DNA of 64,000 nt, from assembly GCF_902713615.1 (NCBI RefSeq), contig NC_052146.1, positions 309,954,335 to 310,018,334 on the forward strand. The letters run 5' to 3'. The notes beneath the pieces were generated by a model, which saw nothing but the letters and a program-made list of their open reading frames with translations, was not told the origin of the DNA and did no database searches. Position 1 is the stretch's first letter. Each line of letters begins with the position of its first letter. Position numbers and translations under genes: made by a program. This DNA is from Scyliorhinus canicula (taxonomy: Eukaryota). This document shows, piece by piece, positions 12,060 through 33,168 of the stretch.

Positions 12060-12320
12060 TCATAGAATCCCTTCAGTGCAGAAGGAGGCCATTCAGCCCA
12101 TTGGACTCTGCAGCCAGGCTCACTCCCCCGTCCTATCCCCGTCCTATCCCGGTAACCCCCCACATGGCCAAGACACCTAACCTGCACATCTCTGGGTTGT
12201 GGGAGGATCCCGGAGCTCCCTGAGGAAACCCACACAGACATAGGCAGAGTCACCTGAGGCCGGAATTGAACCAGGGTCCCTGGCAGAGTGAGGCAGCAGT
12301 GCTAACCACTGTGCCACCCA
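12060..12320 (-). mobile_element. tRNA-derived SINE (HE1-like)
   Basis: The reverse complement has a tRNA-like head (GGTGGCACAGTGGTTAGCAC...GGTTCAATTCC) and a LINE-like tail. Confidence 0.75.
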
Positions 12321-13187
12321 ACACCTTCCTGAGAGATCCACTGGCTAACTCACTCCCTGAGCTGCATTTCTGTCAATTTGCCTCTCCTGGGATCCCCACT
12401 GGCTCCGTGCCCTTTACCAATATTAAAACTGTCAGTTGGAGGGACAGGGTTTGGCTCCCTCAGATTTATTTCCAGTCTCTCTCAGTTACCCCCACTCCCA
12501 TGCCCACCGTGTTGCAGTGGCAGCTGGTAAAGATCCCAGTCCCTGAGGAATGGAGGGATAGAGACGCCATTCTCCCAATCTGATCCCCCCCCCACACTAA
12601 CCTGTGGAGAGGCCTCAGTTTCCACAAACCCAATAGGCTGTGGTTCTGTTGATCCGTGGGGTGGTCCTGTCCCTTTAAATGTCTGACTGTCTGTTCGAAT
12701 GTTGCTGACACTTCCCATTCTAATTCCCAAACCTGCTTCCTATTGTGAGAAACACTCTCCCACTATTGGTTCAGTAAAGATAGCTCCAATCTCCATGGAC
12801 TGCAGCAGTTCAAGAAGGCAGCTCACCACCGCCTCCTTCAGGGCAATTAGGGATGGGTAATAAAAGCTGGCCTAGCCAGCGACACCCACATCCCAGGAAT
12901 TCATTTAGACACTAACTGGGAGAGGTCAGTGTGTTTGAGAGAGCTGTTCCACAGTGTGAGAACAATATTGCATTTCACAATTATATCAACACATCTGTAC
13001 TGCTGAGATCAGCACAGAGTAACCCCCAGGATAGAAATCATTAACAAACTAACACAACTAGATCCGTCTCAGAAGCTGTTTCCTCCTCCTTAACACAGAA
13101 CTTCTACTGCCTGGACTGTCCCTTTAAATACTCACAGCAAACTTTCAGCTCAGAATTTAACTCACTGATTTTGTTTTTCTCTGAAAG

Positions 13188-13532
13188 ATGCGACTGATCC
13201 AGTCCTTATCCAGTCTCCAAGTGTGGAACGTGTGACAGAGGGTCAGACTGCACGGTTACAGTGCACCATGCAGAACGGCGCAGTGAGAGACAGAAATGTT
13301 TATTGGTACCGGGAGCGGCCAGGGAAACAGAGGGAGAGGATTTTAGGACTTGATAAAGGTAATGTTGTATTCCGGTATTCAGTATACTCTGAGCGTTTCC
13401 AGCCTTCCAGACACATCGACTCCAACAGCTTCATCCTGACAATCAGCAACGTGCAGCCCAGTGACACTGCCGTCTATTACTGCTCAGTGTGGGAAGAGAT
13501 CTATGGGAATGGAAGCCGGCTGAATGTAACCA
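13188..13532 (+). CDS. V1 exon: germline-joined VJ-type Ig domain (345 nt, phase 1/1)
   Basis: Acceptor ttttgtttttctctgaaag| and donor A|gtaagt. It encodes ATDPVLIQSP...LQC...YWY...FILTISNVQPSDTAVYYCSVWEEIYGNGSRLNVT, with canonical Cys/Trp/Cys and a J-like GxGxxLxV. Confidence 0.9.
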
Positions 13533-14729
13533 GTAAGTAGAGTTTTCATTCCAATTACCCACAGCAATAACCTCTTCCAGATGAGTGAATTGGAGATGAG
13601 TTTGTGATGATGAAGAGCTAGGAGGTGATGTAAAGTGATCTTACTGATGGGTTCACTGTGGGGAAGAAGCTGAGCTCAGCTTCAGCAATTCCCCAAAGTT
13701 CCACATCTCTGGCTTTATCCTGAGGGGGTGTCTGGGGAGGTTAGTGCCGTCTGGCTGTTTACTGAGCTGCACAGAAACTTTGTCTTAGCCGAGTCTGAAT
13801 GTTGGACAGACATTTGGAGAGAGTGGGAAGAACATTGGGATCAATGGAGGAGGTGGAGAGACTGATCTGAGTGATGGTGAAGATGGGAATGTTGACCAGG
13901 TTTCTGAGGGTGAAATGAGGATGAGGAGGGAGCCAGGGATGGTGCCCTGGGGACACAGCAGAGACGATCATTCAGTCCCTGTGTTTTAATTAAAGTTTGT
14001 TTCAACATAAATGATACCTATTGGTCAGAGTCATCACTCCTGGGGTGAAATATCCTTTCCTCACAGTTTGATGAATTGTAAATTGTTTGGGTTTCCTGTC
14101 CGGGATCCTAACAAAAGTTGGGGTCTGGTCCGGGATCCTCCCAACTCCCTACCATCATTCCTGACTGGATGTGAAAAGACAGCTGGGCTTAGATCTGACC
14201 GTCTGCCCACTCCTCCCCACACAATCCATGCTCATTTCACACACACATTCTCAGCAACCGAGCCATTTCTTTGTCTCCACAATCAAACCATCCATTCGAC
14301 TGACTCTTGCTGCTGGCAATTGGGAGCCACCTCCTGCCCACTGCCAGCTCCTGATCCTGCAATCAGTCTTCACTCTCACCCACAACACTGGCACTCCACT
14401 GATCAACATCATAACTGATATCTGTGTGAATGTGATGGCCACTGTCTATCCCTCCTCAGAATCTTTCACCTCTCCACTCTGTTTAACACCACTGAGCACA
14501 GGTTCCTGTTTAAAAGTCTCTGATCCACATTCCAGCCCCTGGCACTGCTCTGTCACGGACTCACTCCTGGTCAATGGTTAATTTTCCTGGATGCTCAAGT
14601 CTCCAAACGATCTATATCCTGCCATATCCTCTGTCAGTCCTCATCGCTATCCACAATTCCACCAACCTTTGTGTCATCTGCAAACTTACTAATCAGACCA
14701 CTGACACTGTCCTCCCAACAGCAAAGGTT

Positions 14730-15010
14730 CCTCAGCGGGTACCCCTCAACCCCCAAGGGCCAACCCTTCACCCTGGGGTGTCCCTCGAAGATGTCGGGGA
14801 TCTCTGACTGTCACAGGATGCAGCTGTCGTGCACACCCCCGGGGAAGTGTGCACACACGAGCACGATCTCCATGTGGTGGTCACACACAAGTTGGAGGTT
14901 CAGGGAGTGGAATCCCTTTCTGTTGGTGAATGGAACTCCGTGATGCCCCGGTGAGAGCAAGTGGACATGTGTGTGATCTATTACCCCCTGGATCCGGGAC
15001 ATCCCAGCGA

Positions 15011-15041
<31 letters not shown>

Positions 15042-15060
15042 GTACAGCTGAGGCAGCCGT
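14730..15060 (-). pseudogene. PIF/Harbinger transposase fragment
   Basis: IQGVIDHTHV...FTNRKGFHSLNLQLVCDH...HFPGGVHDSCIL, followed after a stop by GWPLG..GYPL. These match HARBI1-like DDE motifs. Confidence 0.8.
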
Positions 15061-15443
15061 GGGGCCGTGGCCTTGGCTCTGGCAGCTCTCCCGGATTAAC
15101 CATTATTTTCCTCAGTGTTGGGAACTGAATCCTGATTGGAGAACAGGATACACTCGGTTTGGGGGTGAGGTTAGGAAGGGGGGTGGCGTGAGGGGTGAGG
15201 TGGGGGGGCTGAGGTGGGGGAGTGAGGTGTGTGTGAGGGGTGAGGGGCTGACTGTACACGGCAGCAGAATGGTTGTGAGGATTCAGTGTCAGGGAAAGGT
15301 GATCATTCCGAGGGAAGCAGTGAGCAGGATGGGGAGGGGATTAAGGATTTTCCGGCAACATCCCTGCAGCACCGGAGCACAGAGCAGAGAAGCAGAGGAG
15401 CTGGAATGTCAGAGGAGGGATTGGGAGATGTGGGGCTCCATGA

Positions 15444-15642
15444 GTGGGGACAGGGTGTGGGGAGAACCTGAGACTGGGAGGTGTAATCAGGAGCTGCCGT
15501 CCATCCAGACTCACATCACTCTGCTCACTGACGCTGCTATTCCTCTTCACATTCCCAGCGGCATTCCTGTTGTTACCTCAGTTCCTATTTCTATTATTTG
15601 GTCTCTATCTTTTTTGGTCCATGACCTTTAATTGATGCAGAG
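15444..15642 (+). other. Candidate signal-peptide-like exon with an in-frame TGA (15633-15635) just before a phase-1 donor
   Basis: Hydrophobic frame LLPQFLFLLFGLYLFWSMTFN*CR, then GAG|gtaagg at 15643. The phase matches the V-exon acceptors. Confidence 0.3.
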
Positions 15643-15963
15643 GTAAGGAACACAAGGGTGGGGGTGCTGGACATTACATAATAGTTAACCAGTTGTATTT
15701 GTTGCTTATTTAATCATAGTTATTTTTAATAAGAAGTTAATTGTGGTTACATTTACAAACCTGATGACTGTAATTATTGGGTAGCTGAAGATCTCGGGAA
15801 TTGGAAAATAAAAGTTAACATCAACCGTGTTGTGACACTGGGTCAAGTGGGGCTGGAATTGACCACACACTGACCCAGGGTGTTGTAACAATATGTTTCA
15901 ACTGATTGACATTGACCTCAGATATTTTGAAACATGAGCTGATGTGTCTCATTTACACTTTCT

Positions 15964-16190
15964 CAGGGCAGCACAGTGGCGCAGTGGGTTAGCCCTGCAG
16001 CCTCACGGTGCCGAGGTCCCAGGTTCGATCCCGGCTCTGGGTCACTGTCTGTGTGGACTTTGCACATTCTCCCTGTGTTTGCGTGGGTTTCGCCCCCACA
16101 ACCCAAAGGTGCAGTGTAGGTGGATTGGCTACGCTAAATTGCCCCTTAAATTGGAAAAAATGAATTGGGTACTCTAAATTTATTTAAGAA
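15964..16190 (+). mobile_element. tRNA-derived SINE
   Basis: GGGCAGCACAGTGGCGCAGTGG...GGTTCGATCCC (A/B-box-like), followed by the body shared with the other SINE copies. Confidence 0.85.
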
Positions 16191-16932
16191 AAAAATAAAA
16201 ATTTACACTTGCTCAAAGTAAGACAATCAGAGACCGGCTGTCTGCAAACAAAAGGAATATGTTCAAGCCGTGCTCCTTTATTTGATAGAAACAGGAGCTT
16301 TGGGAGCCTTGAATTCGTGGTATTCTCCATGGCAACGTTTCAGCCAATCAGAGTTGACTTTCTTTTTTATTAATTTTTATTGTCACAAATAGGCTTACAT
16401 TAACACTGCAATAAAGTTACTGTAAAATGCTCCAAGTCGCCACATTCCGTCGGCAGTTCGGGTACACAGAGGGAGAGTTCAGAATGTCCAAATTACCAAA
16501 CAACACGGGCAGGATTCCCCGACCCCCCCCCCCCCCCCACCCCACCCCAACCCCGCCGAGTCAGAGAATCGGCAGGGGGGACGGCGTGAATCCCACCCCC
16601 GCCGGCTGCCAAATTCTCCGGCACTGGAAATTTGCCGGGGGCGAGAATCGGCTCTCCCGACAATTCCCCGGCCCGTGATGGGCCGAGTGGCCACCCCTTT
16701 GTTGCTGGTCCCGCCGGCATAAATTATAATAGCTCCTTACCAGTGGGACCTGGTGGCGCAGGCGGCCTCCGGTGTCCACGGGGTGGGGGGGGGGGGGGTA
16801 ACCCCCCATGCGCATGCGCTGGAATGATGCCAGCACAAGCTGGCGTTCCGCGCATGCGCCAACTCGGGCCGGCTGGCGTGGCGCCAATCAACTTCCCCGC
16901 CGGTCGGCACAGCCGGCCTAGCCCCTGAAGGT

Positions 16933-17894
16933 TGTAGCCACCTAAAATGGACGTTGAGCTGCAAAGTAAGCCAAGCGCTAAGACTGCAGGGAAAAAGGCA
17001 GTTTAGCCAAAACAGCAGTCTGCAAAGAGAGCATTTTGCATTCTGCAAGTAGCAGAAACCAGTTTGGTCTCAGGTGAGAAGACCTTAGTTCGGTGCAAAT
17101 GGCAAAACGCTTTGCATACTAATGAGGCAATCAGACCTGAACACCCACACAATAGAAACATTTGACTCTGAATGGACACATTTGAACCAAGGCCCAGACA
17201 TCGAGGCACCAGAAACCTCCAAACAAAAGGGCATAAGAAACGCCCCCCCCATCACGGAGACCCCCTCGCATTGGGGAATTCAAACAGTATCGATGAGGAA
17301 TTGACCCAATAGATAACCAAAGGTTAAAGCCCGCCCCAAAAAGGCATGGAGATTGGGATCCCTATAAAAGACAGGGACCTCGTGTTGTCCGGTCTGTTTT
17401 GTGCTCCGGCTACCTGTGATCCTGAACTTGACTCCTGACTCCAGCCGTTGAGCACCAGCCGCTGAACCGTGAGTAATACACGACGCTCGCTACGCGAACC
17501 AGCTACCGATAGACCCTGACAACCAGCATACCCTCTGAAGGTGCAGCCCCAAGATCAGAAGGAAGGCCTTGCTCCCTGACCTTGCCGGTTCCCACTTAGT
17601 TAAGTATACTGATCATTTAGTTTAGTCATAGCTTAGTCTCGTAGTGTGTGCATGGGTATTTATTATTTGTCATAATAAATACAATTCGTTTAGAACTCAC
17701 TAATCGGTGTATCGTCTTTATTACTTTGAACCTGACCTTGAAATACTTGTGACGGTGTCTAGATACGGCACCTGGCGACTCCGAGCTAGAAGAATACACA
17801 TACAGAGCCTAGTAGTGTTAAGCACACGACCTTACGGAGGCGTGTTAATACACTCCAATAAACGCGTTTTACACCCAAAGTAAAACGTGCAACA
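16933..17894 (+). repeat. 5' LTR (962 bp)
   Basis: TGTAGCC...GCAACA, with TATAAAA at 17363, a GTGAGT donor at 17469, and AATAAA motifs in the 3' part. By eye it differs from the 3' LTR by about 10 substitutions plus a 2-bp poly-C indel. Confidence 0.95.
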
Positions 17895-17899
17895 TTTAG

Positions 17900-17919
17900 T
17901 GGCGACATCCTGCCGGGAC
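17900..17919 (+). promoter_or_regulatory. Putative primer-binding site TGGCGACATCCTGCCGGGAC
   Basis: It starts with TGG, 5 nt after the LTR end. I could not assign the tRNA. Confidence 0.5.
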
Positions 17920-18213
17920 ACGGTTGTAAGTGGTAACCCCACTCCGTCCAGGACCCTGAAATTTGAATTGGAACTCCAAAATACAGAGAAAGTAAAAAAA
18001 TCACAAGTCTTCAAGGTGTTCAAACTAATAAGCGTAATTCGGAAGTGTGTTTAGTGCATGCGTACTAACAGGGCTGTAAGGTAAAACTGAAAGCTTTTTG
18101 TTGCGACAAACTTTCGGTAGTTTTGTGAACGGAACATAGCATAAGCCGTACCCGTTTCGTGAGACACAACCCCAGCACCCCCTGTTCCAAATTTAAAAAA
18201 AGAGTCAGAGAAA

Positions 18214-19968
18214 ATGGCCATGCAGGCAATGGAACGTCTGATGGATCCAGAAAGGTTTGTGGTCGCAGCGACCAGTGGTAGCAGAGTAGGTCAGTGTCCC
18301 GTGTGGGAGCTGGAACTCCGCAAATACCTACAAGGAAAGGGATGGCCCCTTTGGAAAGAGTTTTGTCTGAATGAGGAGCCAGGTCCCGGAAGTATTGGCC
18401 ATACTTGGTGGGAGAACCTCTCTCAAATTCACAAAAAGAATATAGGAAAAGTGCGTAAGCTGATGCCGATTGTGTCCTGTCTGGCACAGTTGCGAGGCAC
18501 AGAGGAGGTCGTTAGGACGCTCCGAGCAGAGTTGGAGGACAGAGACCGAATGGGTAAGGTGGATGTCAGGGACATCGAAAAGGAAAACATGGAGCTTAGA
18601 GGGAAGTTGGCAGAGAAGGGTAGAGAGGTGGAGGATGCCAAGAGGGCACACCAGTCTTGTCTAGCCCATCTCAGCAGTTCCCAAACTCAATATGAGAAAG
18701 CCTATCAGGACGTGCAGCGTGCCGTTCTGGTAAGAGAACAAGCAGAGAAGCAGGTAGAGGCGTTGCAGAAGCAATGCTCTGACCTGAAGGCAGCTTTAAG
18801 AGCACTCCACGCTACTAACACAGAACAGAGACAAAGCACAGTAGACCACGCGAAATGCAGAAAACAGATTGCGGAACTGCAATCTCTGCTTTCGGTGCAA
18901 AACGGGTTCCAGAGCACCTTTGGAACGCAGTTAGATGAAGAAAATGCCCCAGATTGTCAAGAGTTGAGCGAAACTGCGCAGCGTTATGTTCAGAGAACAT
19001 GTGCGCCAGCAGCGCAGCAGAAAAGACAAGCACCCCAACCCCCCACACACCCTCCAGATCAGATAGTCACCGCACCCATGAATCCCGTAACCACACAAAG
19101 GAAAGCAACCACCGAAGGCGCACCCGATATAACCTACACCACCCCCTTAACGGTAACCCAGCTCAGGGACGCATGTGAAAAGATCACTCCGTTCCTCCCC
19201 ACCGCAGACCCCCACCAGTTCTTTGCTAAAGTAAAACAACAGGCGACCATGTACGGCCTGGATGAGAGAGAGCAGGTTAAGCTCACCGTGCTGAGCTTAG
19301 ACCAGTCAGTAGTAGCAGCCCTCCCCGACCCACAGAACGTTGGCGGAGGCACCCTTGAGGAAATGCACACCTCCATTTTAGACGCTATAGGGTACAATCG
19401 AGGTGACCCTGTAGAAGGACTGAACAAGTGCCGGCAAAAGAAAACCGAGCACCCCACAGCATTCGCAGGAAGGCTGTGGATTCATTTTAACGCAGTTTTT
19501 GGCGAGTTAAACAGAGCCCATTTAAGCCGCGAAAACATGGTTAAATGGACGCGCACCCTGATTTCACACGCGACAGAGGCAGGACAGAGCGCTTGCCACA
19601 GTTACGACCCCTCAGAAGAGGCCCACAATGAGAAATGGGTCCTGAAAAGGTTGTCCCGCGCTTGGGAGCAATCACTTCAGGGCAAAAGTAAGGTTAAATC
19701 CCCAGAGGAAGCTCAGGCTGCAGCAGATATTCAGGCAGTGAGAGCGCACCAAAACCCCGCGTGGGTAAATGAAGGGAAGAGCAGCCCTCCACAGAAGTCG
19801 CAGGAATGCTATAACTGTGGACAGTTAGGGCATTGGGCCAAAGAGTGTAATGCACCCCAGAGATCTCAGAGAGGCCAGCAGACAGGCACTCTGAACCGCA
19901 ACAAAGCAAAACCCATCCACAATATAGCAATACAGTCAGGACCCACCAATGTGGACGAGACGAACTGA
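18214..19968 (+). CDS. gag: Gag (584 aa)
   Basis: First long ORF after the leader. It has a coiled-coil region, a capsid-like segment (QKKTEHPTAFAGRL) and one CCHC knuckle, CYNCGQLGHWAKEC. Confidence 0.88.
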   Translation: MAMQAMERLMDPERFVVAATSGSRVGQCPVWELELRKYLQGKGWPLWKEFCLNEEPGPGSIGHTWWENLSQIHKKNIGKVRKLMPIVSCLAQLRGTEEVVRTLRAELEDRDRMGKVDVRDIEKENMELRGKLAEKGREVEDAKRAHQSCLAHLSSSQTQYEKAYQDVQRAVLVREQAEKQVEALQKQCSDLKAALRALHATNTEQRQSTVDHAKCRKQIAELQSLLSVQNGFQSTFGTQLDEENAPDCQELSETAQRYVQRTCAPAAQQKRQAPQPPTHPPDQIVTAPMNPVTTQRKATTEGAPDITYTTPLTVTQLRDACEKITPFLPTADPHQFFAKVKQQATMYGLDEREQVKLTVLSLDQSVVAALPDPQNVGGGTLEEMHTSILDAIGYNRGDPVEGLNKCRQKKTEHPTAFAGRLWIHFNAVFGELNRAHLSRENMVKWTRTLISHATEAGQSACHSYDPSEEAHNEKWVLKRLSRAWEQSLQGKSKVKSPEEAQAAADIQAVRAHQNPAWVNEGKSSPPQKSQECYNCGQLGHWAKECNAPQRSQRGQQTGTLNRNKAKPIHNIAIQSGPTNVDETN

Positions 19969-22900
19969 CGGTGTTCGGGCTCCCCCACTTGGGTCTGTGA
20001 CACACTATGGGATCCGTCAGGGAGACCCGTAGTCACGGCAAAAGTAAAAGGGAAGCCCATAGAGTTACTTTGGGACACAGGAGGGTCCCGCACCACAATA
20101 AACTCCACGACCACGGCACAGGCAGACACGTGGCCGACCACATCCACCATCACACTTAGCGGGTTCACAGGACACTCGCAGCAGGGACATATCACAGCAC
20201 CCGTAGCGATCCAGCTAGGGAACATTTCCACCAAACACCCCGTTGTTTTAGTAAATCTTCCCCGGACAGCAGAACACATCCTGGGGATAGATTTTATGAA
20301 TGCTCATAGCCTGTCGTTCGACCCAGTGAACCAGTGTGTCTGGCGAATGGCTCGATCGGACAGAGCACCAGCTACTCTCAAAGTAGGAGAGTACGCTAAC
20401 AGGATTAGTGCAGTAGGAGAGTACTCCTTTGACCTGACTACACTCCACACCGACAGACAAATAAAGGCACTTCTAAACAAACACAGGACAGCATTTGCCA
20501 GTCACCGTCATGACTGTGGCAGAATGACTGGACCAATCCACGTTACCGGACCGGACCCCCGACCACAGAAACAGTATAGATTTCCCCTGGAAGCAGAGGC
20601 GGAAATAGAGAAAGTTATAGGAAGCTTATTGGAGCAAGGTGTGCTCAGAACGGTAGCCTCGACCAATAATGCCCCTATTTGGCCAGTGAGGAAGCCCGAT
20701 GGATCATGGCGTCTGACCATCGATTATCGGGAACTCAACAAAGTCACCCCCGCAGTAGCCCCAACGATAGCTACTAGTCCCGAGACCATGCTCAAGCAGG
20801 GACTCAACTCCAAATATTTCACGGTATTGGACATTAGTAATGGCTTCTGGTCAATACCATTGGCAAAAGCGTGCCAGTACAAATTTGCCTTCACTTTCAA
20901 ATCGCAGCAGTATACGTGGACATGCCTTCCACAAGGATTCCACAACTCCCCCTCCATTTTCCACCGACAGTTGGTAAGTGGTTTAGAAAAATTTTCCCGC
21001 CCCGAATGTCTGGTACAGTATGTAGACGACCTACTACTGCAGACAGACACAAAGGCAGAGCACATTTCGCTTCTGGCCGAACTCCTGGAACTCTTGACTG
21101 AAATTGGATGTAAAGTTAACCCGAGAAAGGCCCAGATTTTGGCAGATAAAGTGATGTATTTGGGTACAGTCATCACGCACGGCAAACGCGAGATCGAATT
21201 CAAAAGAATTGATTCGATCGTCAAATTGCCCCTTCCCCAAAATGTTTCGGCCCTCCGGTCGTTTTTAGGACTGGTTGGCTATTGTCGGAACCACATCGAC
21301 GGATTCGCGACAAAAGCCGCCCCACTCTCAGACCTCCTTAAGAAAGGAGCCCCCTGGGAATGGCTTCCGCAGCACACAGAGGCTGTTGAGGAGTTAAAAA
21401 GAGCCCTTAGCGCAGCACCCGCGCTGCTAGTCCCAGACCCACTTTCCCCCTATGCAATAGAGGTAGCGAGCACCGATCTGACCCTCTCGGCCGTGTTGCT
21501 TCAGGAACGGCACGAGCAGCTAAGACCAGTGGCTTATGCCTCACGACTGTTAGACCCGGTTGAACAAGGATTCTCAGCCTGTGAGAGGCACCTCCTTGCT
21601 GTCTTCTGGGCAGTACAATATTTCTCTTACATTACCGGACTCAACCCCATTACTATTCTGACCGAACACACACCCACACAGTTACTCCTAGATGGTCGAC
21701 TGAAGGACGGTTCAGTTAGCCAGATTAGGGCAGCTAGGTGGACCCTACTCTTACAAGGACGGGACATTACAGTTAAACGGACCCGCACACACACATATTT
21801 AGCAGACAATCTTCAATACCCCGGACAGCCCCATGAATGTGAAATTGTAGCTCCCCTACATAACACAGGACCCTTTATAGCAAAGACACCCCCCAGGAAG
21901 ATAGGGAATCCAGCACAAGGCACCCCACACGCAGACACGTGTGGACCCCTGAGGATTTACGTGGACGGTTCATCCACAGTTTTAAATGGTGAGCGTATCA
22001 CAGGATGCGGCATCTATGTCGAGGACGCGCAGGGTCGCGCACTCGAAGAAATAGCACTCAAATTGCCAGGTCACTTAGGCGCGCAGGCAGCAGAGCTCGC
22101 GGCCATAGCTTATATAGTGGACCACCCCGATTCTTTCCCCAGCCCAGCAGACATATATTCAGACAGTTTATATGTCTGTAATAGTTTCACAGATTTTCTG
22201 CCCCTGTGGAGGACACGAGGTTTTGTCTCCGCAGACGGGAAACCCCTTCCATCAGCCCCTTTACTCCAGCACATCTTAGAAAAAGCGAAGGACAGGACCT
22301 TCGGCATAATAAAGGTAAGAAGTCACCATAGGTCATCCCCCCCTGGGAATGTAAAGGCCGACGCATTGGCTAAGGCAGGTTCCAGGCGAGGACACTTATG
22401 GACCCCCCCAGCTAGTGCACCAGCTAGCGCCCCTGTGAGCGCAGTCCAAGTCTCACAGACTGACATTAAAGATCTTGTAGAGGCACAGAAGCAGGATGAG
22501 GATCTCAGGGAGATTTTCAAAGGAAACTTTGTGCCACAATACGATAGATTCAAACACGCACTGACCACACATGAGGGTGTGATCATTAAGGACCAGCTTT
22601 ATGTGGTCCCGAAGCAGGACAGGAATCAGATGATTGCCTTGTTCCATGACGGACACGGGCATCAAGGAATTGACGCAACTACTAGGCACCTCAGGCAGCT
22701 CTGTTGGTGGCCTAATCTAAGGACCGATGTGACACATTATATCGAGAATTGCCTTATTTGCGCTCAGAATAACCCGGAGAGGTATTCTAAAAAAGCCCAA
22801 CTTCGGCATACTCGACCAGTTAACGGCCCCTGGACGAACCTCCAGATCGACTTTATAGGACCATTGCCCCCTTGTAGGAATGGCTATAAATACGTTCTGG

Positions 22901-24195
22901 TGGTGATCGACACTTTTACCAAGTGGGTAGAGGCATTTCCCTCTCGTACGAACACAGCTAAGACAGCTGCTAAAATTCTGACGCACCACATCTTCACAAG
23001 ATGGGGTTTACCGCGTAGTATTGATTCGGACCAGGGATCTCATTTTACAGGACGTGTCATGAAGAGCGTCCTGACAATATTTGGCATAAAACAAAATTTC
23101 CACATTGCGTATCATCCACAGTCCAGCGGGATTGTGGAGCGCATGAATCGGACCCTAAAAACAACCCTTAGGAAAATGGTACAGGAAAACAATTCGACAT
23201 GGGATTCAGTGCTCCCATTTGCACTCATGTTCATAAGAAACACTGTCTCCACATCCACAGGTTACACACCACACAAACTCATGACCGGACGCCCTATGAA
23301 AGGTACGGAATTCCTTTTAGGACTTGACATGACTAGCCCCGAAGTAACGGCCCTCACACATGAAAGAGCAGTTAAAGACCTAGTTGAGACTGTGAGGTCT
23401 GCACAGCTCGCAGCCGCAGTTCGACTAGGCAAACGACGTCAGCAAAGCACTGCGTGCTTTGACAAGACTGTTCACCCCACAGAATTCCAGGTTGGGCAAC
23501 AGGTAATGTTATCTGTTTACAACCCCAGCAGTTTTTTGGCTCCAAAATTTTCCGGCCCCTACTCAATTGCGGATAAAATTAGCCCCTCTGTGTATAAAAT
23601 CAAATATCCTAACGGGAAGACTGCGTGGTTTCATATTAACCAGCTTAAAGCATATGGAACACAGTCTAACCATGCTCATCATGTACTGCTAGATGCAGCA
23701 GAACACTTCACCCCGCCCACTAGAGACACTTTTCCACCATCCCCCTCACAGACCAGTTCATCAATGGACTCGCCCACGACTCCGCCCACTGACCACGACA
23801 GACCACGCCCCGAAACGCCCACAAGCTGCCGCAGCAGAGACAGCAGGACAGACACTGACTCTGAGGACAGTGACAGCACACAGCCATACAGCCCACACTA
23901 CACCGACTATGACCCCGACTCCAGTGACCCCATGGAAGTCACTTACCTTAAAAACCCAGAACCACCACCCGACCCCGACTACCCCGACAACACACTTGAC
24001 ACAGCACTCTGGCACAGGGACAATTCGTGCAGACATGTCCGCAACGATGAAAGTGACCCCCGGTCACATAATTATAAGATTGCATGCCTGATCCACACAA
24101 GGGTGTGGGATCCGGGAGAGCAGGACGACACGGTGTCTGAATCCCGATACGGCAACCCCTTTGTGACCCTGTTCACAGAGGCAGAGTCAAAGTGA
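19969..24195 (+). CDS. pol: Pro-Pol (protease, RT, tether RH, RNase H, integrase, C-terminal extension), in frame with gag after a single TGA
   Basis: The frame is open from 19969; the ORF track starts only at the Met at 20296. Motifs: LLWDTGGS/ILGIDF (PR); LPQGFHNSP, YVDD at 21019 (RT); RPVAYASR...ERHLLAV (tether); YVDGS...AELAAI...YSDS...GNVKADALA (RNase H); HHCC, QIDFIGP, SDQGSHF, GIVERMN, GPY (IN). Confidence 0.93.
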   Translation, partial: RCSGSPTWVCDTLWDPSGRPVVTAKVKGKPIELLWDTGGSRTTINSTTTAQADTWPTTSTITLSGFTGHSQQGHITAPVAIQLGNISTKHPVVLVNLPRTAEHILGIDFMNAHSLSFDPVNQCVWRMARSDRAPATLKVGEYANRISAVGEYSFDLTTLHTDRQIKALLNKHRTAFASHRHDCGRMTGPIHVTGPDPRPQKQYRFPLEAEAEIEKVIGSLLEQGVLRTVASTNNAPIWPVRKPDGSWRLTIDYRELNKVTPAVAPTIATSPETMLKQGLNSKYFTVLDISNGFWSIPLAKACQYKFAFTFKSQQYTWTCLPQGFHNSPSIFHRQLVSGLEKFSRPECLVQYVDDLLLQTDTKAEHISLLAELLELLTEIGCKVNPRKAQILADKVMYLGTVITHGKREIEFKRIDSIVKLPLPQNVSALRSFLGLVGYCRNHIDGFATKAAPLSDLLKKGAPWEWLPQHTEAVEELKRALSAAPALLVPDPLSPYAIEVASTDLTLSAVLLQERHEQLRPVAYASRLLDPVEQGFSACERHLLAVFWAVQYFSYITGLNPITILTEHTPTQLLLDGRLKDGSVSQIRAARWTLLLQGRDITVKRTRTHTYLADNLQYPGQPHECEIVAPLHNTGPFIAKTPPRKIGNPAQGTPHADTCGPLRIYVDGSSTVLNGERITGCGIYVEDAQGRALEEIALKLPGHLGAQAAELAAIAYIVDHPDSFPSPADIYSDSLYVCNSFTDFLPLWRTRGFVSADGKPLPSAPLLQHILEKAKDRTFGIIKVRSHHRSSPPGNVKADALAKAGSRRGHLWTPPASAPASAPVSAVQVSQTDIKDLVEAQKQDEDLREIFKGNFVPQYDRFKHALTTHEGVIIKDQLYVVPKQDRNQMIALFHDGHGHQGIDATTRHLRQLCWWPNLRTDVTHYIENCLICAQNNPERYSKKAQLRHTRPVNGPWTNLQIDFIGPLPPCRNGYKYVLVVIDTFTKWVEAFPSRTNTAKTAAKILTHHIFTRWGLPRSIDSDQGSHFTGRVMKSVLTIFGIKQNFHIAYHPQSSGIVERMNRTLKTTLRKMVQENNSTWDSVLPFALMFIRNTVSTSTGYTPHKLMTGRPMKGTEFLLGLDMTSPEVTALTHERAVKDLVETVRSAQLAAAVRLGKRRQQSTACFDKTVHPTEFQVGQQVMLSVYNPSSFLAPKFSGPYSIADKISPSVYKIKYPNGKTAWFHINQLKAYGTQSNHAHHVLLDAAEHFTPPTRDTFPPSPSQTSSSMDSPTTPPTDHDRPRPETPTSCRSRDSRTDTDSEDSDSTQPYSPHYTDYDPDSSDPMEVTYLKNPEPPPDPDYPDNTLDTALWHRDNSCRHVRNDESDPRSHNYKIACLIHTRVWDPGEQDDTVSESRYGNPFVTLFTEAESK

Positions 24196-25150
24196 GGTGT
24201 CCAGATGATGTAACATAGGAATCGTTTGAGGGAAGCGATGTCCTTTCTGATGGAACCTGCACGTATGTTTGTCTATCGTTTTATGTTTGTTTGTCTTTCA
24301 GGAATGTAAATGGTTCAGTTGGAGGATGGACATCTTCTTTTCAGCTGAAAAGATTGTGACCACCTCACACACACGTTAGCTTGTCCGCCGATACCTTTGA
24401 GAACTTCAGTTCCCAAACCCGTTTGATTGGAGATCTTTTCAAGTTGTAAGGCTTGTGACCACCTTACACACACAATAGTTTATCTGCAGATACCTGTGAG
24501 AACTTCAGGTTCTGTCCTCAGTTGGAGCATCTTGGCTCCCTTGTTTTTGTTAGGTGCCCCTCTATTCGGCGAATAGAGGCTGCAAGTCACGGTGACCACA
24601 TTCTTACCCGTTTAATCCAGGTTACTCAGGCAGTGGACAAACGGCACTGAGGACCCGCCCTGTCTGAGAACCAACCTTGGTCAGCCAAGCTCGGGTATGG
24701 CACAGCACGCCCTACCCGGGGATCCCATCCAACTCGTACCCGTCGCGGCCCATACGCAACTCATTCGAACGTTTCTTTCAAAATTTGTTTTCATTTTAGT
24801 TAGGTAGCCCTTCGGCCGCCATCCCACATGCTATTTACATCCGGGAACATTCGGATGGTAAACTAGCAAAGCCTGCGAGACGGCTCGCAGGAGAAGGATT
24901 GTTAGGTGTATTCTGGTCTTCAAATTCGCTTTTGAAAAAAAAAAAATGAGGGGAGTCACAGGGTGTGACTTGGCCAGTCATTTTTAAAGGGTCAATTGGA
25001 ATTTAAAAGACAGATGCACTAACAGGTAAAGATCTTAAACTGTGTATTGACAGATACTGTGCTTGATCCCATAGCTTTCGAAGGACGAGACAGGAATCGA
25101 AGCAAGGATTGTCCATACAGGAGGAAGAAAGAAGGAAGAACAAGTTGAAG

Positions 25151-25495
25151 ATGATGGAAGCTCACCTATTACTATTGAATGTTATATTTGTTTGTGTACA
25201 AACCAGCCATGTTTCCCCCACAACCCCCGCCGTTAATGTTTCCCTCACAGCAAGTCCCCCGTGCTCAGCTCTGATCAGCGAGGTTCAGACCTGGTGCACG
25301 AAGTTTATGACATGGTACTCCATGTCATACGTGATCGAATCACTGCTAGTGATTGCGATCATCTGTATCATCATCCAAACCCTCAGGTTGAGGAAGTGGA
25401 AGAGGAGAGCCTCCCGCTCCTGCCCCTCAACCATCTATGGGGTACAATCCCCTATCTTCGGGTTTCACCAATCCCCCCAGCCCCTCACTGATTAA
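25151..25495 (+). CDS. Small type-I membrane protein (114 aa) in the env position
   Basis: MMEAHLLLLNVIFVCV (signal-like), a short Pro/Thr/Cys ectodomain with an NVS sequon, TM SLLVIAIICIIIQTL, basic RLRKWKRR and a short tail. A ccatacag acceptor lies at ~25120. Confidence 0.7.
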   Translation: MMEAHLLLLNVIFVCVQTSHVSPTTPAVNVSLTASPPCSALISEVQTWCTKFMTWYSMSYVIESLLVIAIICIIIQTLRLRKWKRRASRSCPSTIYGVQSPIFGFHQSPQPLTD

Positions 25496-25855
25496 AGCAC
25501 TCTGTAAATAAAATTCTACCATGTATTATATTGTCCTACACTCGACTGCCGAGTTAGGAAGTGTGATGTTGTGGTGTGAATGGTTAAGGTTTTTTAGAGT
25601 GTGATAAATGTTTAAGTTAAGGATAAGGATAGTTTGATAGGTAGAGGTTCCCGGTTTTTGTAATGCATGTCCCTTTGACATAGGGCCAAGTAGAATGTTA
25701 GTTAAATTTTTTTTTCTTCTTCCCATAGTTTAGGATAGAGAAGCCCAGGAACTGGCAAGAGGTCAGGGAACACAGGGAACACACAGAGAAGGCACCCAGA
25801 AGCACTCAGCACGACCTGCATGGGTGATCCTTCACAATTTTCAATTGTGAGGATC

Positions 25856-25867
25856 ACAAGGAGGGAA
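25856..25867 (+). promoter_or_regulatory. Polypurine tract
   Basis: ACAAGGAGGGAA lies immediately before the TG of the 3' LTR. Confidence 0.75.
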
Positions 25868-26831
25868 TGTAGCCACCTAAAATGGACGCTGAGCTGCAAA
25901 GTAAGCCAAGCGCTAAGACTGCAGGGAAAAATGCAGTTTAGCCAAAACAGCAGTCTGCAAAGAGAGCATTTTGCATTCTGCAAGTAGCAGAAACCAGTTT
26001 GGGCTCAGGTGAGAAGACCTTAGTTAGGTGCAAATGGCAAAACGCTTTGCATACTAATGAGGCAATCAGACCTGAACACCCACACAATAGAAACATTTGA
26101 CTCTGAATGGACACATTTGAACCAAGGCCCAGACATCGAGGCACCAGAAACCTCCAAACAAAAGGGCATAAGAAACGCCCCCCCCCCATCACGGAGACCC
26201 CCTCGCATTGGGGAATTCAGACAGTATCGATGAGGAATTGACCCAATAGATAACCAAAGGTTAAAGCCCGCCCCAAAAAGGCACGGACATTGGGATCCCT
26301 ATAAAAGACAGGGACCTCGTGTTGTCCGGTCTGTTTTGTGCTCTGGCTACCTGTGATCCTGAACTTGACTCCTGACTCCAGCCGTTGAGCACCAGCCGCT
26401 GAACCGTGAGTAATACACGACGCTCGCTACGCGAACCAGCTACCGATAGACCCTGACGACCAGCATACCCTCTGAAGGTGCAGCCCCAAGATCAGAAGGA
26501 AGGCCTTGCTCCCTGACCTTGCCGGTTCCCACTTAGTTAAGTATACTGATCGTTTAGTTTAGTCATAGCTTAGTCTCGTAGTGTGTGCATGGGTATTTAT
26601 TATTTGTCATAATAAATACAATTCGTTTAGAACTCACTAATCGGTGTATCGTCTTTATTACTTTGAACCTGACCTTGAAATACTTGTGACGGTGTCTAGA
26701 TACGGCACCTGGCGACTCCGAGCTAGAAGAATACACATACAGAGCCTAGTAGTGTTAAGCACACGACCTTACGGAGGCGTGTTAATACACTCCAATAAAC
26801 GCGTTTTACACCCAAAGTAAAACGTGCAACA
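25868..26831 (+). repeat. 3' LTR (964 bp)
   Basis: Direct repeat of 16933-17894. Confidence 0.95.
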
Positions 26832-27606
26832 AGGTGCAGAGGATTCCGCACATTTGGGGCGGCTCGACGCCGGAGTGGTTCCCGCCACTCCTTCCCGTCA
26901 GGGTTGATTCCCGTCCCGCTGATTCCCGCAGAATCCCGCCCCACTTCTTTCGGGAATTGTGGGAGGAAACCAGAGGACCCGGAGGAAACCCACGCAGACA
27001 CGATGAGAAACATGCAGACTCCGCACTGACAGTGACTCACGCCGGGAATCGAAACTGGGACCCGAGATCAGTGAAGCAACAGTGCCAACCACTGCGCTGC
27101 AGTGCAACCCATTAGCCCCATTTTCCCCTTTAAAATAAATTGTAATTCTTTGAAATTAAATATTCCTGAAATGAAATGAAAATGAAAAGCGCTTATTGTC
27201 ACAAGTAGGCTTCAATGAAGTTACCGTGAAAGCCCCTTCTCGCCACATTCTGGCACCTGTTCGGGGAGGCTGGTACAGGAATTGGACCGTGTTGCTGGCC
27301 TGCCCTGGTCTGCTTTCAAAGCCAGCTATTAAGCCCAGAGTGCTAAACCAGCCTGTGTGTGTTTATCTTGGTGTGTACAAATTGAAAAACTTCAACAATG
27401 AGTCACTTTTCACAAGATTCAATCCTAAACAATAAAGCGACTGATTTTTTATTGACTCACACAAATATATTTTGCTTTATTCAAATGAATCAGCTCTTCG
27501 GTTCAATCTTAGAATCTGGTTCTCTCCTTTTCAAACAGAACATTCTCTTTAAACACTTTGGAACCTTCAGACTGGTGTTTAACTTGTTGATATTTTTCTC
27601 TGAAAG

Positions 27607-27951
27607 GTGCGAATGCTCCAGTCCTTATCCAGTCCCCGAGTCTGGAACGTGTCACAGAGGGTCAGACTGCACGGTTACAGTGCACCATGCGGAACGCCGC
27701 AGTGACACACACCGATGTTCACTGGAACCGGGAGCTGCCAGGGAAAGATAGGGAGAGGGTTTTAACACATGATATAAAGAACAACACACAACGGAGTCCA
27801 GGATTCAATGAGCGTTTTCATCCTTCCCGAGACACGGTCAATAAAACCTTCATCCTGACAATCAGCAACGTGCAGCCCAGTGACACTGCCGTCTATTACT
27901 GCTCCGTGTGGGGATATATCAGTGGGAATGGATCACAGCTGAATGTAACCA
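27607..27951 (+). CDS. V2 exon (VJ-type Ig domain, phase 1/1)
   Basis: ctctgaaag|GT GCG AAT...ACC A|gtaagt. Encodes ANAPVLIQSP...YYCSVWGYISGNGSQLNVT. Confidence 0.9.
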
Positions 27952-28359
27952 GTAAGTACAGTTTCCATGAGTCTCATGTGGTTTTGCTCACAGATGGAAT
28001 CTTCTTGAACTTATCTTCCAGAATATAAATTCTTTGACTCCTTTGTTTACTCAGGTTACTACCAATGTGGTGCCTCGACCTGTTTTGTTTTATATTCATA
28101 CTTTATTGGCAAGGTGCCATCCCTAACTGCCCTGGAGAAGGTGGTGGTGAGCTGCTGCACTCCATGTGGTGTAGGTACTGCTGTTAGGGAGGGAGTTCCA
28201 GGATTGTGACCCAGCGACAGTGAAGGAACGGCGATACATTTTGTTACGACACCCCGGGCCAGTGCATGGGCAATTCCAGCCCCACAGACCCCGGATTCCC
28301 AACATAATTGAATTAACCAGGAACTTGTGTACTTTTCTGAGATCTTTGACCCTTGATGG

Positions 28360-28707
28360 GGGTAGCATGGTGGTTAGCATCAATGCTTCACAGCTCCAGG
28401 GGTCCCAGGTTCGATTCCCGGCTGGGTCACTGTCTGTGTGGAGTCTACACGTCCTCCCCCTGTGTGCGTGGGTTTCCTCCGGGTGCTCCGGTTTCCTCCC
28501 ACAGTCCAAAGATGTGCGGGTTAGGTGGATTGGCCATGCTAAATTGCCCGTAGTGTCCTAATAAAAAAGTAAGGTTAAGGGGGGGGTTGTTGGGTTACGG
28601 GTATAGGGTGGATACGTGGGTTTGAGTAGGGTGATCATGGCTCGGCACAACATTGAGGGCCGAAGGGCCTGTTCTGTGCTGTACTGTTCTATATTCTATG
28701 TTCTATG
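28360..28707 (+). mobile_element. HE1-like SINE inserted only in the V2 repeat unit
   Basis: tRNA head plus a CR1-like (CTATGTT)n tail. The other units read ccttgatg/tctccaatg without interruption. Confidence 0.88.
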
Positions 28708-29577
28708 TCTCCAATGAGTTACAGGCACCAGATTTGAAAGTAAAATATCAGAACTGTTTATTTATGAAAAGAGTAAAAGATGAACATATAATGGAAATAA
28801 TGTAACACTGATCTACTAGTCTAACTATTCCCCAAACACCATCCCACGCTACACCAACATGCACACAAGACAGACACACAGGCGGGAAGGGAAAGGATCG
28901 AAATGATGGGGATTAAACTGGGTGTGAGATATTTGACAAACTTTGCTGCTGAGGTTGAGGTCTTTGTTGACTTTGTTTTTTAATAATCTTTATTGTCACA
29001 GTAAGCTCACATTATCACTGCAATGATGTTACTGTGAAAAGCTCCTCGTCACCACATTCCAGCTCCTGTTCGGGGACACAGAAGGAGAATTCAGAATGTT
29101 CAAATTGTCTGACAACACATCTTTTGGGGCTTGTGGGAGGAAACTGGAGCAGCTACGCAGATGCAGGGAGAATGTACAGACTCAATACAGACAGTGAACC
29201 AAGCCAGGAATCAAACCCAGGACCCGAGAGCAGTGAAACAACAGTGATAACCACTGCAGTGCAGTGCCGCCATTAGCACCATTTTCCCCTGTAGAATAAA
29301 TTGAGATTCTTTGAAATTTAACATTCCTGTTTTTTCTCGATGAGTACATAGCGAAAAACTTCAGCAATGTGTCTCTATTCGACAGGATTCAATCTTAAAC
29401 AACAAAGCAACTGTTTTTTTTATTTACTCACACAAATATATTTTGCTTAATTTGAATGAATCAGCCCATCGGTTCAGTCTTAGAATCTGGTTCACTCTTT
29501 TTAACACCGAACATTCCCTTTCAACACTTTGGAACCTTCAGACTGGTGTTTAACTTGTTGATATTTTTCTTTGAAAG

Positions 29578-29922
29578 GTGCGAATGCTCCAGTCCTTATC
29601 CAGTCCCCGAGTCTGGAACGTGTCACAGAGGGTCAGACTGCACGGTTACAGTGCACCATGCGGAACGCCGCAGTGACACACACCGATGTTCACTGGAACC
29701 GGGAGCTGCCAGGGAAAGATATGGAGAGGGTTTTAACACATGATATAAAGAACAATACACAACGGAGTCCAGGTTTCACTGAGCGCTTTCATCCTTCCCG
29801 AGACACGTCCAATAAAACCTTCATCCTGACAATCAGCAACGTGCAGCCCAATGACACTGCCGTCTATTACTGCTCCGTGTGGGGAGCTATCAGTGGGAAT
29901 GGATCACAGCTGAATGTAACCA
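29578..29922 (+). CDS. V3 exon
   Basis: Same splice signals, 345 nt, open frame; ends ...SVWGAISGNGSQLNVT. Confidence 0.9.
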
Positions 29923-31200
29923 GTAAGTACAGTTTCCATGAGTCTCATGTGGTTTTGCTCACAGATGGAATCTTTTTGAACTTATCTTCCAGAGCTTAAA
30001 TTTTTTGACTCCTTTGTTTACTCAGTTTATTGCCAATGTGGTGCCTCGAGCTGGTTGGTTTTATATTCATACTTTATTGGCAAGGTGCCATCCCTAACTG
30101 CCCTGGAGAAGGTGGTGGTGAGCTGCTGCACTCCATGTGGTGTAGGTACTGCTGTTAGGGAGGGAGTTCCAGGATTGTGACCCAGCGACAGTGAAGGAAC
30201 GGCGATACATTTTGTTACGACACCCTGGGCCAACGCATGGTCAATCCCAGCCCCACAGACCCCGGATTCCCAACGTAATTCAATTAACCAGGAACTTGTG
30301 TACTTTTCTGAGATCTTTGACCCTTGATGTCTCCAATGAGTTACAGGCACGAGGTTTGAAAGTAAAATGTCAGAACTGTTTATTTATGAAAAGAGTAAAA
30401 GATGAACATATAATGGAAGTAATGTAACACTGATCTACTAGTCTAGCTATTCCCCAAACACCGTCCCACGCTACACCCACATGCACACAAGACAGACACA
30501 CAGGCGGGAAGGGAAAGGATCGAAATGATGGGGATTAAACTGGGTGTGAGATATTTGCCAAACTTTGCTGCTGAGGTTCAGGTCTTTTTTGACTTTGTTT
30601 TTTAATAATCTTTATTGTCACAGTAAGCTTACATTATCACTACAATGATGTTACTGTGAAAAGCTCCTCGTCACCATATTCCAGCTCCTGTTCGGGGACA
30701 TAGAGGGAGAATTCAGACTGTTCAAATTACCTAACAACACATGTTTTGGGGCTTGTGGGAGGAAACCGGAGCAGCTACGCAGATGCAGGGAGAATGTACA
30801 GACTCAATACAGACAGTGAACCAAGCCAGGAATCGAACCCAGGACCCGAGAGCAGTGAAACAACAGTGATAACCACTGCAGTGCAGTGCCGCCCATTAGC
30901 ACCATTTTCCCCTGTAGAATAAATTGAGATTCTTTGAAATTTAACATTCCTGTTTTTTCTCGATGAGTACATAGCGAAAAACTTCAGCAATGTGTCTCTA
31001 TTTGACAGGATTCAATCCTAAACAACAAAGCAACTGTTTTTTTTATTTACTCATCCAAATATATTTTGCTTAATTTGAATGAATCAGCCCATTGGTTCAG
31101 TCTTAGAATCTGGTTCTCTCTTTTTAACACCGAACATTCCCTTTCAACACTTTGGAACCTTCAGACTGGTGTTTAACTTGTTGATGTTTTTCTCTGAAAG

Positions 31201-31545
31201 GTGCGAATGCTCCAGTCCTTATCCAGTCTCCGAGTCTGGAACGTGTCACAGAGGGTCAGACTGCACGGTTACAGTGCACCATGCGGAACGCCGCAGTGAC
31301 ACACACCGATGTTCACTGGAACCGGGAGCTGCCAGGGAAAGATATGGAGAGGGTTTTAACACATGATATAAAGAACAACACACAACGGAGTCCGGGTTTC
31401 ACTGAGCGTTTCCATCCTTCCCGAGACACGGCCAATAAAACCTTCATCCTGACAATCAGCAACGTGCAGCCCAGTGACACTGCCGTCTATTACTGCTCCG
31501 TGTGGGGAGATATCAGTGGGAATGGATCACAGCTGAATGTAACCA
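31201..31545 (+). CDS. V4 exon
   Basis: Same splice signals, 345 nt, open frame; ends ...SVWGDISGNGSQLNVT. Confidence 0.9.
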
Positions 31546-32823: not shown

Positions 32824-33168
32824 GTGCGAATGCTCCAGTCCTTATCCAGTCCCCGAGTCTGGAACGTGTCACAGAGGGTCAGACTGCACGGTTACAGTGC
32901 ACCATGCGGAACGCCGCAGTGACACACACCGATGTTCACTGGGACCGGGAGTTGCCAGGGAAAGATATGGAGAGGGTTTTAACACATGATATAAAGAATA
33001 ACACACAACGGAGTCCGGGTTTCACTGAGCGTTTCCATCCTTCCCGAGACACGGCGAATAAAACCTTCATCCTGACAATCAGCAACGTGCAGCCCAGTGA
33101 CACTGCCGTCTATTACTGCTCCGTGTGGGGAGATATCAGTGGGAATGGATCACAGCTGAATGTAACCA
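32824..33168 (+). CDS. V5 exon
   Basis: Same splice signals, 345 nt, open frame; ends ...SVWGDISGNGSQLNVT. Confidence 0.9.

Follow-up and report, generated by a model that had tools for sequence, protein, structure and literature searches.

The sequence analyzed here is a stretch of 64,000 nucleotides from the catshark Scyliorhinus canicula (RefSeq assembly GCF_902713615.1, contig NC_052146.1, positions 309,954,335 to 310,018,334), referred to as the window and numbered from its first letter. It contains an endogenous retrovirus (ERV) on the plus strand at 16933-26831 (9,899 bp), which is a complete single insertion flanked by long terminal repeats (LTRs) and a target-site duplication (TSD). 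An earlier note on this DNA, made from the letters alone, had described a young, env-less provirus with LTRs about 99% identical, a 4-bp TSD and uninterrupted gag and pol. Apart from its youth, which is considered below, this description was confirmed. The 5' LTR (16933-17894, 962 bp) and the 3' LTR (25868-26831, 964 bp) both have TG...CA ends, and the 5' copy carries TATAAA at 17363 and AATAAA at 17674 and 17857. The two are 98.8% identical over 964 columns, with 10 substitutions (6 transitions, 4 transversions), one 2-nt indel and a Kimura two-parameter distance of 0.0105. The sequence AGGT stands on either side of the insertion, at 16929-16932 and 26832-26835. The gag and pol reading frames, of 584 and 1408 amino acids, contain no stops and lie in one frame with a single TGA between them.

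A likely primer-binding site (17900-17917) begins with TGG five bases past the 5' LTR; its TGGCGA is also present in the primer-binding site of the snakehead retrovirus. A 10-nt polypurine tract (25858-25867) directly precedes the 3' LTR. The order of LTR, gag, protease, reverse transcriptase (RT), tether, RNase H, integrase (IN) and LTR, together with primer-binding site, polypurine tract and TSD, is the canonical retroviral layout. The element is a well-preserved, coding-intact endogenous retrovirus of the canonical Retroviridae. Two of its features, a likely UGA-CGG readthrough signal and an open reading frame (ORF) for a membrane protein of 114 amino acids, are absent from the earlier note.

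Coding content of gag and pol

Gag (18214-19968, plus strand) has one CCHC knuckle at residues 531-545 (zf-CCHC, E 1e-7). Upstream of the knuckle are an N-terminal domain, a long predicted helix (about 118-236, from a low-confidence model) and a capsid-like region (about 305-490). The hint of a capsid comes from Atlas features only, which fall into Retrotrans_gag/Ty3_capsid clusters at 0.91-0.95. Low-confidence AlphaFold models of Gag and of the capsid region (predicted local distance difference test scores of 42 and 47) gave no Foldseek match at E ≤ 0.001. Four Gag homologs were found among 8000 candidates scored, all from Scyliorhinus torazame, on four separate contigs and 71-79% identical to the catshark protein.

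At the gag-pol junction (19966-20060, plus strand), a lone in-frame UGA is followed by CGG and by a predicted extended stem-loop, and the whole is likely a readthrough signal. The stem-loop prediction had a z score of -3.0 in a 100-nt segment and of -1.0, -2.0 and -1.4 at 60, 130 and 150 nt. Because three of the four S. torazame Gags stop at the identical point, the UGA stop is a trait of the family. UGA-CGG is the type II readthrough context, as in Venezuelan equine encephalitis virus and Colorado tick fever virus (PMC13517186). UGA junctions between gag and pol are already known from SSSV, ZFERV and XtERV-S (PMC8278194, PMC13517186), so the junction is not novel in itself. The reading frame, the stop context and the shared stop suggest that Gag-Pol would be made by UGA-CGG readthrough.

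Pol (19969-24195, plus strand) continues the gag frame and comprises, by Pfam comparison, protease, RT, tether, RNase H, integrase and a low-complexity tail. The RT core (20686-21171; RVT_1, E 5e-33) includes D288 and YVDD at residues 351-354. It is followed by the tether (21361-21756; PF17919/PF17917), which has a Ty3-type RNase H fold and carries V, H and E at the catalytic positions, as compared to D, E and D in all three gypsy sequences examined. A second RNase H (21952-22383; PF00075, E 1e-15) has the full D-E-D-H-D set (D666, E709, D732, H786/787, D798). The integrase (22606-23655) has an HHCC zinc finger, the D961-D1021-E1057 triad, a GPY motif and an SH3-like C-terminal domain. The catalytic residues of RT, protease and integrase are all present, and every motif that had been noticed earlier (LPQGFHNSP, YVDD, EVAST, the complete second RNase H and QIDFIGPLPP) was located in Pol. 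The reading of the element as a retrovirus with a tether plus a new RNase H was upheld: the degenerate tether and the intact second RNase H were both located, and the RT falls inside the canonical Retroviridae. This pair of domains occurs in lokiretroviruses as in all other retroviruses.

The C-terminus of Pol is a tail of 170 amino acids rich in Pro, Ser, Thr and Asp (23686-24192) with no Pfam match; the snakehead retrovirus Pol is likewise tailed. A plus-strand ORF of 132 amino acids rich in Thr, Pro and His (23693-24091) overlies the Pol tail in another frame and may be a shadow of its base bias.

Phylogenetic placement

Anchors for the trees were taken from viral_contigs, one ERV-L-type metagenome locus (L075) and protein searches; no Odin or fish foamy-like sequence was identified among them. 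L001 was taken as the snakehead retrovirus on account of its UAGGGC gag stop, and L009, L015 and L013 as MoMLV, WDSV and WEHV1 (named protein P0245). Lokiretrovirus anchors were matched to published alignments by motif. The remaining anchors received their group names (foamy, delta, lenti, beta, alpha, ERV-L and SSSV-like) from motifs.

In the RT tree (71 of about 340 sequences, P0131 being dropped for coverage and the bootstrap not fully settled), the catshark provirus lay within the canonical retroviruses (100/97) in a clade of 14 sequences (97/89), and the lokiretroviruses were separate (99/97). Its RT thus stands with the ortho- and spumaretroviruses, lokiretroviruses and Ty3/gypsy elements being excluded from that group. 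Named members of the clade come from the frogs Rhinophrynus, Pyxicephalus and Xenopus tropicalis and from the coelacanth Latimeria. The RT plus tether tree (47 sequences) gave 100/99 for the canonical group and 91/98 for a nine-member clade with the provirus, and a quick tree under a mixture model gave 99 and, for an eight-member clade, 97. Lokiretroviruses formed their own clade at 99-100 in every tree. P0004, together with P0121, came out as sister to the provirus whether the tree was built from RT, RNase H or IN. Neither the RT tree nor the RT plus tether tree placed the provirus within class I (gamma and epsilon).

Approximately unbiased (AU) tests on RT plus tether rejected a union of the provirus with the lokiretroviruses (p=3.9e-7; 28 sequences, 10 having been removed for speed). 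Unions of the provirus clade with foamy viruses (p=0.059-0.19), the snakehead retrovirus (p=0.14) or the snakehead retrovirus plus ERV-L (p=0.058) were not rejected, and none was recovered. The RT motif also differs, being LPQGFHNSP in the provirus as compared to PFGY.NSP in lokiretroviruses and Odin (PFGYVNSP in Odin itself, an element whose sister group is the rejected lokiretroviruses). LPQGFHNSP has no occurrence in the available parts of the supplements to the lokiretrovirus (PMC7947760) and Odin (PMC9040795) papers. The lokiretrovirus or Odin-like affinity proposed in the earlier note is therefore not sustained. Its broader statement, that the element fits no classified genus and belongs among deep-branching lineages of class III grade, was right. 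In these alignments the provirus clade is placed at the unresolved base of the canonical retroviruses.

The integrase of the provirus is 49-51% identical to those of its own clade, 43-44% to those of lokiretroviruses, 42% to that of murine leukemia virus (MLV), 36% to those of foamy viruses and about 27-32% to that of the snakehead retrovirus. A union with foamy viruses was rejected (AU p=0.005, 32 sequences), so the foamy-type integrase once suggested for this element fails the tree test, and a union with lokiretroviruses was not rejected (p=0.38). One tree nested lokiretrovirus integrases in the provirus group (87/90); two later trees left this open, and the case for a specifically loki-like integrase became weaker. 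On a fair reading of these comparisons, the integrase appears short-branched and near the base, with no transfer. Tether bit scores of the provirus were 72-107 with lokiretroviruses, 37 with the snakehead retrovirus and 4-24 with foamy viruses. The second RNase H paired with P0004 (100/97), apart from those of foamy viruses and lokiretroviruses (33 sequences, 2 left out).

Relatives already described

The best classified match in viral_contigs was the snakehead retrovirus (E 2e-97; the next was 4e-73). The two have in common an in-frame gag-pol stop, a CCHC Gag and a long, tailed Pol (1398 amino acids in the snakehead retrovirus). However, they are only 33% identical over protease, RT and RNase H, their Gags are similar at the knuckle only, and the snakehead retrovirus has UAG instead of UGA and a large env. 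A metagenome scan gave no match, and a motif scan returned seven loci, none close by protein alignment (best about 30%).

The supplement to Xu et al. 2018 (PMC6001957) contains a whale-shark ERV, rh_ty_ERV2, whose Gag is colinear with the catshark Gag in the sequence given there. By hand count, 67 of 126 capsid-region residues are identical (about 53%); the CCHC knuckle is the same, and the protease start matches. In the text of S2 Fig of that paper, Rh_ty_ERV2, An_ja_ERV4, La_ch_ERV4 and Ca_mi_ERV1 stand in the block of clade Huo beside the snakehead retrovirus, which is an order of text and not a drawn tree. The skate entry le_er_ERV4 resembles P0004 as judged by eye, and it shares the LPQGFHNSP/YVDD type of RT with the catshark provirus, as do ca_mi_ERV1 (elephant shark), an_ja_ERV4 (eel) and la_ch_ERV4 (coelacanth) in the portions available. 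Frog Pol proteins named 'NYNRIN-like' (P0001-P0003) are 44-47% identical to the provirus over RT to IN. A snakehead-related chimaera lineage, CmiERV lineage I, is defined in the accessible text by a downstream env. Given the whale-shark, skate and elephant-shark entries of Xu et al. 2018, the lineage was already known from sharks. The earlier note would be refuted by an RT grouping within a shark family already described with like organization, and most of this now holds: the homologous rh_ty_ERV2 and a skate ERV of the same type are in that supplement, as far as their partial sequences show. The published rh_ty_ERV2 is a partial reconstruction, whereas the catshark element is a complete insertion with LTRs and TSD. 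By sequence comparison, the provirus belongs, as a new and unusually complete member, to an already known snakehead-related lineage of sharks, skates, frogs, coelacanth and eel.

The frog proteins P0001-P0003, P0006 and P0009 are complete retroviral Pols belonging to this lineage, although NCBI and UniRef call them 'NYNRIN-like' or 'Gypsy integrase-like 1'. One of them, the Pyxicephalus gene model P0002, has 130 amino acids past the integrase in which a signal-peptide-like stretch and an apparent immunoglobulin (Ig) domain were seen by eye, possibly from a captured host gene.

Other groups resemble the provirus in part. XtERV-S and ERV-L of class III (PMC8278194) also have an in-frame TGA between gag and pol and a tether plus RNase H, but in the parts consulted they have YIDD, a dUTPase, a 5-bp TSD and no zinc knuckle, and L075 is far from the provirus. 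Lokiretroviruses and Odin (PMC7947760, PMC9040795) share the dual RNase H, the Ty3-like tether and a related integrase, and Odin lacks env; as described in those sources, they differ in their separate RT clade (lokiretroviruses), in the PFGY.NSP motif and in the F-like env of lokiretroviruses, and no ORF like a mononegavirus F was seen in the catshark provirus. Foamy viruses, as described in PMC8278194, have a Gag without CCHC and express pol separately, whereas the provirus has a CCHC Gag and gag and pol in the same frame. In cartilaginous fish, clade III is reported to account for the majority of ERV loci that carry an RT (PMC11089739). Three cartilaginous genomes were among those screened for lokiretroviruses, and none is named as a host in the available text (PMC7947760).

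A catshark element described previously, ERV-Spuma.0-Sca, was considered as the same element and rejected, its reported layout being different (9,220 nt, an 866-nt LTR and an env). Of six 9-12-mers from the window, four are absent from the accessible text of its supplement and the other two occur in three unrelated passages, a comparison weakened by line breaks. Neither the catshark family nor the small ORF was found described in the openly accessible literature, a search that left subscription journals, Repbase and Dfam outside.

Copies, transcription and age

Four read sets were mapped to 15900-25860, namely one RNA run and three DNA runs, of which two are from organism A and one is from organism B; all 30 bins were covered in each. 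In DNA run X1 (organism A), summed contig depth over gag-pol was about 10,000-23,000, whereas several apparently single-copy contigs of the flanks had about 6-11. The provirus family is multicopy in all three DNA runs and both organisms, with depth taken to mean many copies and not a copy number. Read-likeness bins include reads from a short interspersed element in the flank, so family divergence was not taken from them. The window departs from nearly all contigs at several sites; two of these, 17068 and 17091, are also positions at which the two LTRs disagree, a pattern that changes arising after the insertion should give. Of 79 indels, the 12 with the best support fall in the LTR, the leader or spacers, with none in gag, pol or the small ORF, although this is weak evidence for a 345-nt target.

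In the RNA run, minus-strand reads stood at 0.3-10 against 0-1 over gag-pol and at 18-72 over the 3' spacer. Most reads are from the minus strand, which under the usual library convention stands for sense transcripts of the family; this copy need not be their source. The family is likely transcribed in sense, as judged from this one run.

Directly before the 3' LTR, at 25557-25860, depth in organism B was 27 as compared to 1000-3400 over gag-pol, at 90% likeness. Since this segment is nearly absent from organism B, the 3' end differs between species or subfamilies. The empty site was not seen in these reads: the left flank is repetitive, and a joint of 16931 to 19748, with 28-32 letters on its short side, was discounted because it is probably a match to a repeat.

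LTR divergence corresponds to 2.4 million years at a mammalian rate (PMC7947760), 10.5 million at an assumed catshark rate (PMC10699275) and 24 million at an assumed shark rate (PMC4422223). The youth previously claimed for the provirus thus depends on the clock, with 10-24 million years at shark rates, and its mobility at present is not supported. Probably this copy inserted millions of years ago and is no longer active.

The 3' region and its small membrane ORF

Between pol and the 3' LTR no env ORF and no env homology was found, the longest plus-strand ORF being 142 codons from stop to stop, and the provirus is env-less as previously described. Because absence of env is common among ERVs, it lowers the case for an infectious virus but not for an ERV. 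The spacer after pol contains a 75-nt direct repeat at 83% identity (24336-24508, plus strand).

About 950 nt downstream of the pol stop begins a small ORF (25151-25495, plus strand) for a predicted membrane protein of 114 amino acids. It has a hydrophobic N-terminus that is likely a signal peptide, an ectodomain of about 40 residues that contains two Cys and a single N-glycosylation sequon, a predicted transmembrane (TM) segment at about 57-78 (19-residue hydropathy up to 2.45), an RLRKWKRR patch and a 27-residue tail. It has no MG myristoylation motif, and the hydrophobic moment of its ectodomain is at most 0.39. In 1000 shuffles of the 1.67-kb 3' region, an ORF of at least 100 amino acids arose in 89, one with a TM segment in 3 and one with a polybasic patch as well in none, the criteria having been chosen after the small ORF was seen. 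Depth over the ORF in X1 was 8,000-14,000, of the same order as over pol.

Searches with the small ORF gave no Pfam match over the cut-off, no homolog among proteins of 62-200 amino acids, and only Atlas matches below 0.9 (under the threshold for recognition). A comparison with 324 ORFs from viral loci, among them env, showed no similarity either (best E 0.05). The 15 of 85 joints listed include no splice joint leading to it. Most likely the small ORF is a genuine accessory gene or else what is left of an env.

Its outline, a short single-TM protein with a juxtamembrane polybasic patch, matches that of the reovirus FAST (fusion-associated small transmembrane) proteins and of sORF2 of the Drosophila MDG1 group, which is also env-less (PMC11952523). 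According to the available text of that paper, sORF2 fusogens are reported from Metaviridae, not vertebrate Retroviridae, and some lepidopteran sORF2 genes are located after pol. Fusogens of this kind are marked by an N-myristoylation motif, in most members, and by amphipathic motifs in the ectodomain and endodomain. The catshark ORF differs in lacking the myristoylation motif and having a likely signal peptide; it has no sequence link to these proteins, and the likeness to a fusogen is one of sequence outline only. In the literature examined, as far as it was available, no small TM ORF is described for le_er_ERV4, ca_mi_ERV1, an_ja_ERV4, la_ch_ERV4 or the frog relatives.

Surroundings of the provirus

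Five similar Ig V-set units, at 13172-13549 and 27591-33539, form an array within which the provirus lies. The lone copy is 82-87% identical to the others, which are spaced by 1971, 1623 and 1623. Four units were translated and are unbroken from the V domain to a J-like end (YYCSVWG..SGNGSQLNV), resembling non-rearranging antigen-receptor-like genes. A related family has left an LTR on the minus strand at 662-187, which has diverged to 70% identity over 485 nt and has the same TGTAGCCACCTAA start; it points to the left window edge and is a solo LTR or the end of another provirus. Two inverted 2.6-kb copies (83%) of another repeat lie at 8189-10778 and 50174-52763.

Discussion

The catshark provirus is most likely an env-less canonical retrovirus of the lineage listed in clade Huo, which likely multiplied inside germ cells in the manner of a retrotransposon. 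Its LTR would drive one genomic RNA, from which translation would give Gag where it terminates normally and, where UGA-CGG is read through, a minor amount of Gag-Pol. Particles would form without env; reverse transcription would be carried out by RT with the second RNase H, with the first RNase H serving as tether only, and the integrase would insert the DNA with a 4-bp duplication, of which the duplication itself is observed. Copying within germ cells would be the simplest route without env, and env-less ERVs are reported to proliferate more easily. Loss of env is likely because the chimaera relative, CmiERV lineage I, is defined by having it.

Several points weigh against this interpretation. 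Support for the provirus clade was only 69/93 in the 28-sequence tree, and Huo was not recovered as a clade, the snakehead retrovirus and ERV-L branching elsewhere. The link to rh_ty_ERV2 rests on Gag and the protease start as given in the available supplement. ERV3 and ERV4 are marked by a 5-bp TSD and by having no zinc finger and no GPY/F, and snakehead-related ERVs, some with such motifs, were left unclassified (Chong 2014, as far as available); the provirus has a 4-bp TSD, a CCHC knuckle and GPY. Readthrough and retrotransposition are steps read from the sequence, and rarer copies with an env may exist, the listing having covered 15 of the 85 joints and a minor share of the loose ends.

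Two alternatives concern the missing env. In one, env was replaced by the 114-residue protein acting as a FAST/sORF2-like fusogen, with direct transfer of capsids from cell to cell, for example from soma to oocyte, through catshark germlines. The ORF stands in the env position, it has a single TM segment, the RLRKWKRR patch, a short ectodomain and a size within the FAST range, and its read depth, the indel positions and the shuffles (none of 1000, by post hoc criteria) are in its favor. Nevertheless, a TM segment with a basic patch is typical of any single-pass membrane protein, the MG motif is missing, and the N-terminus looks like a cleavable signal peptide, which FAST proteins are not known to have. 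With no homolog, no Atlas match reaching 0.9 and no splice joint among those listed, and with env-less ERVs multiplying well without a substitute, a fusogen is unlikely. The other alternative, a defective derivative of an env-bearing retrovirus that reinfected with env supplied in trans, would make the small ORF a leftover of the env signal peptide and anchor. The ORF does have both ends of an env (signal peptide; TM segment and tail), and env defines the snakehead-related CmiERV lineage I in the text available. However, it begins about 950 nt past the pol stop rather than at it, it resembles none of the viral-locus ORFs, and no large insertion joint was among those listed, making this origin improbable as well.

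The remaining alternatives would assign the provirus to another group. A shark lokiretrovirus or Odin-like element would account for the dual RNase H and, as Odin is described in the accessible text (PMC9040795), the absence of env; the tether and integrase are nearer to those of lokiretroviruses than to those of the snakehead retrovirus or foamy viruses, and the IN union was not rejected. The RT plus tether test, the separate lokiretrovirus clade throughout, the different RT motif and the absence of an F-like env all argue to the contrary, MLV integrase is equally close, and such an assignment is very improbable. A fish foamy-like ERV is suggested by the top PDB sequence matches, which are foamy Pol and integrase, and by an RT plus tether union that was not rejected at p=0.059. 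PDB, however, has no closer relatives, and the CCHC Gag, the same-frame gag and pol, the rejected IN union, the grouping of the RNase H elsewhere and the different layout of ERV-Spuma.0-Sca make this highly unlikely.

The catshark provirus, very probably an env-less canonical retrovirus, does not bring lokiretroviruses into sharks. What it offers is a full, coding-intact representative of a lineage close to the root of the canonical retroviruses that has been poorly described; in the literature examined, as far as available, this lineage is otherwise visible only in reconstructions or in gene models wrongly called 'NYNRIN-like'. The layout of the lineage can be seen in it: a CCHC Gag, a UGA-CGG junction, a Ty3-like tether, a short-branched integrase near those of lokiretroviruses and gypsy elements, GPY and a 4-bp TSD. 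This bears on whether the lokiretrovirus integrase was replaced, as Wang and Han proposed in the text accessible to us, or is an ancestral one that was kept. If the small ORF were under selection and fused cells, env-free spread from cell to cell would reach the vertebrate retroviruses, and the Drosophila MDG1 mechanism would have a Retroviridae counterpart in one of the earliest-branching canonical lineages.

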